13,866 bases of DNA, taken from IMG/VR virus record IMGVR_UViG_2690316086_000003, positions 1 through 13,866 of that record. One strand, written 5' to 3'. Positions 1,825 to 8,419 of this stretch are shown here, in pieces. Each line of letters starts with the position of its first letter. Positions within the stretch are counted from its first letter, which is position 1. The notes beneath the pieces are model-generated. The model was not told the DNA's origin and did not search any database. It saw only the letters and a program-made list of their open reading frames with translations. Position numbers and translations under genes: made by a program. The stretch comes from a virus (Duplodnaviria > Heunggongvirae > Uroviricota > Caudoviricetes).

Positions 1825-1953
1825 TCAGCCGTTAGATTTTGCCGAGCTGGAAAGCGCCTGTTTAAATTCGCTGAAGCTGAGAGCTTCTTCGCCTTCGGCA
1901 AGGCCTTCGAAGTATTCTTCGTAAGCCTTTTCCATGATTGTGTCGAAATCCAT
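1825..1953 (-). CDS. small hypothetical protein (42 aa), Rac-type YdaF/YdaG-like position
   Basis: Hand translation gives MDFDTIMEKAYEEYFEGLAEGEEALSFSEFKQALSSSAKSNG. AGGTGG sits 5 nt upstream of the ATG, inside the 3' end of the preceding gene. Too short for the ORF track. Confidence 0.45.
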   Translation of the reverse strand: MDFDTIMEKAYEEYFEGLAEGEEALSFSEFKQALSSSAKSNG

Positions 1954-1954
1954 A

Positions 1955-2110
1955 TCACCCACCTGAATTTCTTTCCAGCCAGCGACGCGCTCCAGATTCG
2001 GTTTTAAACGTTTTGCTTTTGGTATACGTCATCGCGGTGAACGTACCGTCCTGGTTGGGGAACACGCCACATACCAGAGATTCGCTGTTGCCAAGATCGA
2101 TAGTATCCAT
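1955..2110 (-). CDS. small hypothetical protein (51 aa), Rac-type YdaF/YdaG-like position
   Basis: Internal ATG of track ORF 1955..2191 with GAGG 5 nt upstream. Product MDTIDLGNSESLVCGVFPNQDGTFTAMTYTKSKTFKTESGARRWLERNSGG. It is the first gene downstream of the leftward promoter next to the repressor gene. Confidence 0.5.
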   Translation of the reverse strand: MDTIDLGNSESLVCGVFPNQDGTFTAMTYTKSKTFKTESGARRWLERNSGG

Positions 2111-2291
2111 GCTGACCTCATTTCCCCTTAACGCCGGGGTAGCGGAACAAAAACCTGCTGCATAGTTATTAAAGTTGAACCCTGCCGTCATGTTCTTACG
2201 CCTCGGGCTGGCTACTTAACCCCTGACCACTGCCTGGTAACTCGAGGTATTGCCCTGTATTGTGTGGGACGGGATGGGTTGGTATGGGAAA

Positions 2292-2357
2292 ACTATAGGA
2301 AATGCCTAATTACTTGTCAATAGGCTATGCCTAATAATTTGGGCGCGACCTAATAGG
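2292..2357 (-). promoter_or_regulatory. pL-like leftward sigma70 promoter with repressor operator inverted repeats
   Basis: On the minus strand: -35 TTGACA (complement of 2315-2320), 17-nt spacer, -10 TATAGT (complement of 2292-2297). Inverted repeats TAGGA-aat-GCCTA (2296-2308), TAGGC-tat-GCCTA (2321-2333) and ACCTA-a-TAGGT (2347-2357) overlap or flank the promoter. Confidence 0.5.
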
Positions 2358-2428
2358 TGATGGTTTGTGGGAGAGGTAGTAGGAGTTAACTAACGGGAAC
2401 TAGGAATTTCCCGTCGGACCATATAAGT

Positions 2429-2905
2429 TTAAGTTCCTGTCTTGGTGATGTTCTGGCTTTTCCGTTTTGATTCTTGATTTTTCAGATAGTTAGCTACCTT
2501 CATTTCCATTGCGGCAATGTAGGCGCGAACGTCATGATCAACCCAACTAGGCTCCGTAGCATTTCCAGATAAGAGGAAAGCCACAATTGCTCTTTTTTCA
2601 TCAGAGGCGGCTTGATAAAGGCTGTTTATGTCTAAAAGTTCACTTTTTGTATCTGAAGTGGATGGGGTTGGTATGGGGTATTCGTTAAGCCCCCAATGCT
2701 CTGGACCAACCACATCAGAAAAGAAACGCCATAGTTCTGGAAGTTTGTCTTTACTTATCGAACCTTTCTTAATCCAGTCATGGATTGATGGTGGTTGGAC
2801 TTTGAAATGACGTGCGATTTCCGCCTTTGATTTGACGGCTCCTGATGCAATTTTTTTGTTAATGGCCTGCTCTATCGCTCGGCCTAAGTCTTTACCACTA
2901 AGCAT
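2429..2905 (-). CDS. racR: prophage repressor, RacR-like (CI-type HTH repressor)
   Basis: 158-aa ORF MLSGKDLGRAIEQAINKKIASGAVKSKAEIARHFKVQPPSIHDWIKKG... with an HTH near residues 24-47. AGGAGA RBS upstream. Divergent from a Cro-like gene. Length and sequence match my memory of Rac prophage RacR. Confidence 0.85.
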   Translation of the reverse strand: MLSGKDLGRAIEQAINKKIASGAVKSKAEIARHFKVQPPSIHDWIKKGSISKDKLPELWRFFSDVVGPEHWGLNEYPIPTPSTSDTKSELLDINSLYQAASDEKRAIVAFLLSGNATEPSWVDHDVRAYIAAMEMKVANYLKNQESKRKSQNITKTGT

Positions 2906-2958
2906 TGCTTAATAGTCTCCTATGCGCATCGCGTTAGGCAATCCCTACTCTCGATGTG

Positions 2959-3002
2959 TTAGGCATAGCCTATTGACAATTGTATTAGGCTAAGCCTAAT
3001 AT
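2959..3002 (+). promoter_or_regulatory. pR-like rightward sigma70 promoter with repressor operator inverted repeats
   Basis: -35 TTGACA (2973-2978), 18-nt spacer, -10 TAATAT (2997-3002). Operator inverted repeats TAGGC-ata-GCCTA (2960-2972) and ATTAGGCT-a-AGCCTAAT (2984-3000). The block 2959-2979 is the exact reverse complement of 2314-2334. Confidence 0.55.
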
Positions 3003-3029
3003 TGTTGCGTGTTTTTTGGAGTTCATTCG

Positions 3030-3353
3030 ATGAAAAAAGATAACTATTCATTCAAACGAGCTTGTGCTGTTGTCGGTGGGCAATCAGCAATGGCTAGGCT
3101 TTTAGGTGTATCTCCTCCAAGCGTAAATCAATGGATCAAAGGTGTACGTCAGTTGCCTGCTGAGAGATGTCCTGCGATTGAACGAGCAACAAAAGGTGGT
3201 GTCCTGTGTGAAGAACTTCGTCCTGATGTTGATTGGACATACTTACGACGCTCGTCATGTTATTCGCAGAATATGTCGATGAAGCAACCAAATGACGAAA
3301 ACGATCATACCCGAAGCATCAAGAGGCAAATGATTCATGAAAATCAAACATGA
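3030..3353 (+). CDS. ydaS: Cro-like HTH regulator, YdaS-like
   Basis: ATG at 3030 with GGAG 8 nt upstream; the track ORF begins at an upstream GTG. HTH segment GGQSAMARLLGVSPPSVNQWIKG. Divergent from the repressor gene, in the Rac-type order racR-ydaS-ydaT. Confidence 0.7.
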   Translation: MKKDNYSFKRACAVVGGQSAMARLLGVSPPSVNQWIKGVRQLPAERCPAIERATKGGVLCEELRPDVDWTYLRRSSCYSQNMSMKQPNDENDHTRSIKRQMIHENQT

Positions 3354-3762
3354 GCACATCCGCATGGCGATGAATGCCTGGGCATACCCTGATGGTGAGA
3401 AAGTTCCTGCAGCTGAAATAGCCCGGACTTATTTCGAACTGGGGATGACGTTCCCTGAACTGTACGACGACAGCCATCCGGAAGCCCTGGCCCGTAATAC
3501 ACAGAAAATTTTCCGTTGGCTGGATAAAGACACCCCTGATGCTGTTGAAAAAATTCAGGCTCTGTTACCGGCGATCGAAAAGGCAATGCCGCCTCTGCTG
3601 GTGGCCCGTATGCGCAGTCACAGCTCTGAGTATTACCGGGAGATTGTCGAACGGCGGGATCGGCTGGTGAAGGATGTCGACGATTTTGTTGCGTCAGCGG
3701 TTGTTTTGTATGACCAGATGAATCGCGGCGGCCCGGCAGGGAATGCTGTGGTGATGCACTAA
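3337..3762 (+). CDS. ydaT: YdaT-like protein (partner of YdaS in Rac-type prophages)
   Basis: ORF of about 140 aa, MKIKHEHIRMAMNAWAYPDGEKVPAAEIARTYFELGMTF..., overlapping the 3' end of the ydaS-like gene by 17 nt. Length and position match YdaT as I recall it. Confidence 0.7.
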   Translation: MKIKHEHIRMAMNAWAYPDGEKVPAAEIARTYFELGMTFPELYDDSHPEALARNTQKIFRWLDKDTPDAVEKIQALLPAIEKAMPPLLVARMRSHSSEYYREIVERRDRLVKDVDDFVASAVVLYDQMNRGGPAGNAVVMH

Positions 3763-7706: not shown

Positions 7707-8263
7707 GTTAATACCTTATACAGAATCAATTAACAATTAATGGTTCTTCGGACATTGAAATTTATATCGCAAAAATTGGCAAACTCTCCTCGACTACTCA
7801 CTTGTGGGTATCCTGGCGTAAAAGGAATGACTTGGCAATACCCGGTGTGATCATAAGTCATTGAAAATGATCATTTTTATCAGTCTTTCTTCCATGATGA
7901 ATGCTAATGCCATTTGATTTGTTGAGGTGAAAACTGTTAAAAATCAAAACGATGTAATTGAAATGAACGTTCGGTAGCATTCACGCTTTAAATGTTTCTT
8001 TTGTGCTGATTGGATGAATTTGGGTCACTTATGATGAGAGATGTTGCAGGAAAAGAAGTTGGCATTGATCTATTGGATAGTTAGAATTGCTGCGGGTGCT
8101 TGAGGCTATCTGCCTCAGGTATGAACACCAAAAGGCAGATAGAGAAAAGCCCCAGTTAACATTACGCGTCCGGCAAGACGCTTAACATTAATCTGAGGCC
8201 AATTTCATGCTTTGCACATGTAGGTTAGCCTCTTACGTGCCGAAAGGCAAGGAGAAGCAGGCT

Positions 8264-8419
8264 ATGAAGCAGCAAAAGGCGATGTTAATCGCCCTGATCG
8301 TCATCTGTTTAACCGTCATAGTGACGGCACTGGTAACGAGGAAAGACCTCTGCGAGGTACGAATCCGAACCGGCCAGACGGAGGTCGCTGTCTTCACAGC
8401 TTACGAACCTGAGGAGTAA
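8264..8419 (+). CDS. hokD: Hok/Gef-family small membrane toxin (51 aa)
   Basis: Product MKQQKAMLIALIVICLTVIVTALVTRKDLCEVRIRTGQTEVAVFTAYEPEE, with one transmembrane helix and the LCEVR signature. GGAG lies 9 nt upstream. The track ORF at 8207 is an in-frame upstream extension. The sequence matches HokD/RelF as I recall it. Confidence 0.8.
   Translation: MKQQKAMLIALIVICLTVIVTALVTRKDLCEVRIRTGQTEVAVFTAYEPEE

Follow-up and report, generated by a model that had tools for sequence, protein, structure and literature searches.

A Rac-type lambdoid immunity region in an Escherichia coli prophage, with probable RacR operator pairs interleaved with outward-facing promoters on both sides of racR

Gene content of the locus

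The window, meaning the whole 13,866-nt stretch of DNA analysed here, is an E. coli lambdoid prophage that carries a Rac-type immunity region comprising racR, a ydaS-like gene and a ydaT-like gene. The repressor gene racR lies on the minus strand (2429-2905) and encodes a protein of 158 amino acids that is 92% identical to K-12 RacR, and the racR region has a 100% DNA match to E. coli DEC9B, in which it is annotated as RacR. On its right, a ydaS-like gene, the Cro analogue (3030-3353, plus strand; Pfam YdaS_toxin, 3.8e-30, and P22_Cro, 1e-8), is followed by a ydaT-like gene, the CII analogue (3337-3762, plus strand; Pfam YdaT_toxin, 8.2e-11), and then by further genes annotated as helix-turn-helix and DUF977 genes, which are putative replication genes. 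A cII-like role has been described for YdaT (PMC11879457). On its left, the first gene is a DUF1391 gene of the YdfA/YdaF-like type according to Pfam (1955-2110, minus strand), after which the annotation gives ydfB, ydfC, the DicF RNA and dicB, and then exonuclease, excisionase and integrase genes. Rfam places the DicF RNA of this leftward operon at 1183-1234 on the minus strand (75 bits) and a sok antitoxin RNA at 8094-8269 on the plus strand (119 bits). The co-occurrence of racR, a YdaS/Cro-like gene, a YdaT-like gene and the leftward operon thus identifies a Rac-type lambdoid immunity region.

Palindromic operators and the 21-bp inverted repeat

When one mismatch is allowed, the 13.9-kb window contains five copies of the palindrome TAGGC-N3-GCCTA, and all five fall in the two regions that flank racR. 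This compares with an expectation of 0.2, and five or more copies were found in none of 200 shuffles. The left side has two sites: OL1 (TAGGAAATGCCTA, 2296-2308), with one mismatch, extends over the spacer into the first 2 bp of the -10 element of the leftward promoter (pL), and OL2 (TAGGCTATGCCTA, 2321-2333) has a perfect core. The right side has three sites and one degenerate site. OR1 (TAGGCTAAGCCTA, 2986-2998) overlaps the spacer and the first 2 bp of the -10 element of the rightward promoter (pR, or PydaS) and is the core of a perfect 17-bp palindrome at 2984-3000; OR2 (TAGGCATAGCCTA, 2960-2972) abuts the pR -35 element; the OR3-like site (TAGGCAATCCCTA, 2935-2947), with one mismatch, lies in the racR promoter region; and the degenerate operator (TAAGCATTGCTTA, 2899-2911), which lies across the racR start codon, is the ATG-overlapping operator already in print (PMC9638921). 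The operators are 25-26 bp apart from centre to centre. No consensus site for a third left operator occurs at the expected 25-bp step beyond OL2. About 26 bp beyond OL2 lies a palindrome (ACCTAATAGGT, 2348-2358) whose half-sites face outward and which is confined to E. coli-type loci.

The sequence TTGTCAATAGGCTATGCCTAA at 2314-2334, which includes OL2, recurs as its exact reverse complement at 2959-2979, which includes OR2. These perfect 21-bp arms constitute the longest perfect non-overlapping inverted repeat of the window, the maximum in 100 shuffles being 11-15 bp. A chance origin of the repeat and of the palindrome cluster is rejected by the shuffles (100 for the repeat and 200 for the palindromes). 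The composition of the 21-mer is T-TAGGC-N3-GCCTA-TTGACA-A, in which 17 of the 21 positions belong to a half-site, the flanking T or the -35 hexamer, and four are free (the N3 and the last A). The 21-bp repeat is operator 2 together with the -35 hexamer, present on both sides of racR, and the arms match perfectly because 17 of their 21 positions are fixed by function, so that shared function suffices.

Outward-facing promoters

A consensus search for promoters over 1900-3400 returned two sites only, one on each strand, and both face away from racR. The pL-like promoter on the minus strand consists of a -35 element, TTGACA (2315-2320), which directly abuts OL2, and a -10 element, TATAGT (2292-2297), separated by a 17-nt spacer; it scores 11/12, with a predicted start at about 2285. 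On the plus strand, pR has the -35 element TTGACA (2973-2978), identical to that of the mapped K-12 PydaS (PMC9638921), and the -10 element TAATAT (2997-3002), with an 18-nt spacer, one base longer than that on the left, a score of 10/12 and a predicted start at about 3009-3010. The sequence-only reading had described a perfect 21-bp inverted repeat around the repressor gene, each copy carrying a TAGGC-N3-GCCTA palindrome and an outward-facing TTGACA, with a second palindrome over each -10 element and spacer. All of this is borne out: both arms are exact and exceed every shuffle, the cores lie at 2321-2333 and 2960-2972, the second palindromes are those at 2296-2308 (one mismatch) and 2984-3000 (perfect over 17 bp), and the scan recovered exactly the two promoters proposed.

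The predicted pL leader of about 175 nt (2111-2285, minus strand) has a conserved counterpart in K-12 Rac. Its first 40 nt (2246-2285, minus strand) contain 17 C and 4 G; this C-rich segment resembles a Rho loading site and may be linked to the known Rho silencing of Rac. A structured or known RNA in the left leader was rejected, since no Rfam family matches there and the leader folds no better than its shuffles (z = +1.41). Just 3' of racR, a hairpin with the stem CGGGAA/TTCCCG (2394-2413, minus strand) is a possible weak terminator, for which the terminator scan made no call; K-12 has ACGGAA/TTCCGT at the same position, the stem being kept despite the changed sequence.

Published evidence from K-12 Rac

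The right side of the locus has been characterized in K-12 Rac, where RacR has been shown to bind the right-hand palindromes and to repress the mapped ydaS promoter. Three GCCTAA/TTAGGC repeats between racR and ydaS have been reported, together with three RacR-DNA complexes in EMSA, ChIP-qPCR enrichment at the intergenic region and repression of a reporter (Krishnamurthi 2017, PMC5700373). Primer extension subsequently gave a single ydaS start with the promoter TTGACA/TAATAT, whose activity is abolished by a -10 mutation, and DNase I footprints of RacR showed the ydaS promoter to be protected first, at the lowest protein concentration, yielding the consensus (T/A)TAGGC-n3-GCCTA(T/A), one of the operators lying across the racR ATG (Wisniewska 2022, PMC9638921). 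A further study counted four operators, found RacR to be octameric in solution by size-exclusion chromatography, and proposed that a RacR octamer occupies the four sites between racR and ydaS (PMC11014345). PydaS is reported to have low activity in vivo, also when RacR is absent (PMC11879457), and consensus hexamers are therefore no guarantee of activity.

The right side of the window aligns with that of K-12 at 93% mean column identity; the half-sites and the two hexamers are all identical, and what varies is the N3 spacers and the linkers. Each of the sites at 2986, 2960, 2935 and 2899 has an aligned K-12 counterpart and matches the published consensus as well as the published positions relative to racR and ydaS; those at 2935-2947 and 2899-2911 (degenerate) go beyond the first description of the locus. 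This alignment means that the right half and the motif are already known, and the earlier remark that the operator sequences appeared undescribed does not hold, given that both the consensus and the GCCTAA/TTAGGC repeats are in print. The operator sequences are not described in the Jobling 2018 letter.

On the left side, lowering RacR raises ydaG, ydaF, kilR, racC and other leftward genes 40-70-fold (PMC6765115). According to one model, kil is silenced by Rho-dependent termination, inside racR, of read-through from the racR promoter, and not by a repressed pL (PMC4150792). The RacR/Rac literature examined contains no description of a Rac left operator, although an earlier description is possible; ydaG, ydaF, kilR and sieB are unmentioned in PMC9638921, and the word "loop" is unmentioned in PMC11014345.

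The left unit across the RacR family

The left unit was compared among 230 loci that encode RacR relatives, representing 52 distinct proteins that are 65-100% identical to the window RacR over the N-terminal 77 residues and derive from Escherichia, Mixta, Proteus, a Klebsiella phage, Achromobacter and other sources. A first scan of viral contigs gave near-identical E. coli loci only, and diverged queries were needed to widen the set. Residues 1-77 of RacR are highly conserved, with 35 invariant columns, and the proposed recognition helix varies at one residue only, H42 versus Y42, either variant being found with identical half-sites. Exactly one operator pair, with its members always 25 bp apart, lies 3' of the repressor gene for 49 of the 52 repressors; the other three (L010, L012 and L014) have no recognisable downstream pair within about 2.6-2.9 kb. 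The start-codon operator is likewise kept, as TAGGCnATGCTTA at position -6, throughout the family.

The conserved left layout consists of aT-TAGGC-N3-GCCTA, TTGACA, six free bases, TAGGC-N3-nCCTA and a -10 element. The junction at which the operator abuts the -35 element (GCCTATTGAC) is present in 48 of the 49 left units, and a TAnnnT -10 element at a 17-nt spacer in all 49 (TAATAT in 20, TATAGT in 17); the N3 and linker bases vary freely and carry almost no information. The pair is always directed away from the repressor gene and lies 71-2739 nt past its stop codon, a distance that varies with the intervening cargo. Many lineages have a GC-rich hairpin with a T-run 15-20 bp upstream of the pair, a sign that the repressor transcript ends there and that a new unit starts. 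Intrinsic terminators 15-45 nt upstream of the left operator pair were seen in L016, L146-L158 and L210-L221, which are Klebsiella-type and Achromobacter-type loci.

Where lambda has rexAB, between repressor gene and left operator, other lineages carry cargo, as at L016 3649-4803, L219 4640-6654, L148 5575-7175 and L149 5157-6995. In Klebsiella phage KpF5 it encodes an HSDR_N-domain protein, in L219 an IS interrupts this same gene, and elsewhere there are unknown ORFs; PADLOC gave no convincing match to defence genes for this cargo. In Achromobacter-type and other loci, the RacR DNA-binding domain is fused to a Peptidase_S24 domain of the LexA/CI type (L011 3001-4101 and L229 1209-1919). These repressors have unchanged operators and the same left and right layout; within a single specificity class, therefore, the C-terminal domain has been exchanged. 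The window RacR itself has no Pfam match and lacks the S24 self-cleavage domain, which is typical, though not universal, of lambda-type repressors. One 5.2-kb contig labelled as a Candidatus Nanosynbacter metagenome-assembled genome (L005, JARKOR010000130.1) encodes a RacR 92% identical to that of the window, has K-12-Rac-like operators and is probably mis-binned Escherichia DNA. The family-wide layout offers a simple signature for the early left promoter and for a lysogen-expressed cargo slot in RacR-type prophages.

K-12 Rac itself has the left unit of the window. In a three-way alignment with K-12 Rac and K-12 Qin, the window has its left unit and about 150 nt of leader in common with Rac, as far as 2123-2148; beyond this it follows Qin (ydfA-type genes), whereas K-12 Rac has ydaG. 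The junction sequence, TCCCCTTAACGCCGGGGTAGCGGAAC at 2123-2148, is common to the window prophage, K-12 Rac and K-12 Qin. The partner switch at this point, Rac-like upstream and Qin-like downstream, resembles a boundary of mosaic recombination situated just ahead of the first leftward gene. Since the left unit and leader are inherited with racR and not with the downstream genes, they are part of the racR module, as in classical immunity regions.

Interpretation and alternative explanations

Taken together, these observations favour, with a probability of roughly 0.88, a Rac-type lambdoid immunity region in which RacR operator pairs are interleaved with outward promoters on both sides of racR. 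The sequence-only reading had likewise proposed an oL/pL and oR/pR analogue built from one promoter-operator block, a proposal now supported by the K-12 experiments on the right and by conservation and expression on the left. The assignment of the left unit as a RacR-repressed promoter-operator is supported by family conservation, by the mosaic structure and by the 40-70-fold rise of the leftward genes, from which it is inferred.

RacR would act as a CI-like repressor whose dimers recognise the 13-bp palindrome TAGGC-N3-GCCTA. On each flank of racR, a pair of palindromes is interleaved with a predicted strong sigma-70 promoter that fires outward, the promoter-distal site abutting the -35 element (GCCTA|TTGACA) and the promoter-proximal site covering the spacer and the start of the -10 element. 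Because the palindromes overlap both early promoters, bound RacR would block RNA polymerase at each; on the left, RacR dimers are presumed to bind the two sites cooperatively and so to block a strong leftward promoter. When free, pR would drive the cro-like ydaS, the cII-like ydaT and the replication genes, and pL would drive DUF1391, ydfB, ydfC, DicF, dicB and the exonuclease, excisionase and integrase genes. The sites at 2935-2947 and at the racR ATG overlie the predicted racR promoters and would serve autoregulation.

It is possible, though somewhat doubtful, that the RacR octamer, instead of occupying the four sites between racR and ydaS, connects the left pair (2296-2333) with the right pair (2960-2998) and so forms a loop of about 640 bp around racR, in the manner of lambda CI at OL and OR. 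In that case, the left unit would be needed for tight silencing of ydaS/ydaT and for racR autoregulation, and RacR at the left promoter, not Rho alone, would be the primary block on the toxic leftward genes, namely kilR in K-12 and dicB and DicF in the window. The left-right spacing in the family ranges from 611 to 3881 bp, and a conserved helical phasing between left and right operators was rejected, none being seen among the family loci; variable spacing of this kind neither supports nor excludes looping.

The left unit could alternatively be a mere auxiliary docking site from which RacR loops to the right operator, the leftward genes being expressed by read-through from the racR promoter. 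This is improbable, even though RacR is octameric in solution (PMC11014345) and the Rho study attributes kil expression to racR-promoter read-through that is halted inside racR (PMC4150792): the -35 and -10 elements with their 17-nt spacer are as conserved as the half-sites across 49 units from several genera, the left promoter scores 11/12 in the scan, and in many lineages terminators stand immediately upstream of the left unit, so that read-through cannot feed the downstream genes there.

The chance that the palindromes are mainly sites of the Cro-like YdaS, and not of RacR, is very small. RacR itself footprints and shifts the repeats, and the motif follows the conserved RacR N-terminal domain between genera. 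YdaS has been reported to repress itself and to compete with RacR for the intergenic operators (PMC9638921, PMC11014345), and the footprints of YdaS and PaaR2 overlap in CP-933P (PMC8630535), but the sharing of sites by both proteins is expected in a lambda-type switch and is an addition to RacR binding, not an alternative to it. YdaS probably uses the same operator sites as RacR.

The perfection of the repeat was examined in the 217 loci that have both a left and a right unit. Among 43 distinct left/right 21-mer combinations, one is perfect and 42 have 1-7 differences; left and right 21-mers match exactly in 113 of the 217 loci, which are highly redundant E. coli prophages, and K-12 Rac has a 20/21 repeat whose sole difference is one N3 base. 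Recent gene conversion or duplication, or the termini of a mobile racR cassette, rather than functional selection, would be in keeping with the identity seen in those redundant prophages but is a highly improbable source of the perfect repeat and was rejected, inasmuch as merely four of the 21 positions are without operator or -35 constraint, nearly all distinct combinations are mismatched, left/right similarity ends where the functional block ends, and the racR locus shows no target-site duplication and no transposase.

Significance and comparison with known systems

The layout is that of textbook lambda-type immunity, and the motif, the right promoter and RacR binding have already been published for K-12 Rac. 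The new biology gained from the finding is small, and its residual value is practical. Models of RacR action in K-12 Rac use the racR-ydaS intergenic region only, and the left unit is worth including when the stoichiometry of the RacR octamer, the lethality of RacR loss and the silencing of kilR/dicB are interpreted.

The region resembles lambda in having outward promoters, multipartite operators on both sides, cro- and cII-like neighbours and modular inheritance. As in lambda, the repressor gene lies between two outward early promoters, neighbouring palindromic operators cover the -35 and -10 elements on both sides with extra sites at the repressor promoter, a cro-like and then a cII-like gene follow on the right, and the Peptidase_S24 domain of CI is present in some RacR relatives. 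In contrast to lambda, the operator has a 13-bp core instead of 17 bp, the left side has two sites instead of three, the C-terminal domain of E. coli RacR is not S24, the left-right distance is about 640 bp instead of about 2.3 kb, and no N-type antiterminator gene was identified.

K-12 Rac is the closest relative: it shares the repressor (92%), the half-sites, the PydaS -35 and -10 elements, the ATG operator and the left unit (20/21 of the repeat), and it differs in the N3 spacers and linkers. Its left-promoter genes are ydaG, ydaF and kilR, whereas those of the window are Qin-like (DUF1391, ydfB, ydfC, DicF and dicB), and the K-12 Rac literature examined describes the intergenic operators only, the left unit being absent from it. 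With the DicA/dicB promoter region of Qin, the window shares the downstream operon from the junction on (DUF1391/ydfA, ydfB, ydfC, DicF and dicB); upstream of the junction, however, the promoter, operator and leader are unrelated, and the Qin repressor is DicA.

CP-933P (PaaR2/PL933P/PR933P; Jurenas 2021, PMC8630535) has similar operators and an octameric repressor, and differs in that its repressor is another protein, its operator consists of GTTTAGTAA-type repeats, and a toxin-antitoxin pair lies between its repressor gene and its left promoter. Its left promoter has been found and tested, with hexamers identical to those of the right promoter (PMC8630535). Only the left unit of Rac seems to lack a published description, and it is the expected counterpart of this tested element of CP-933P.
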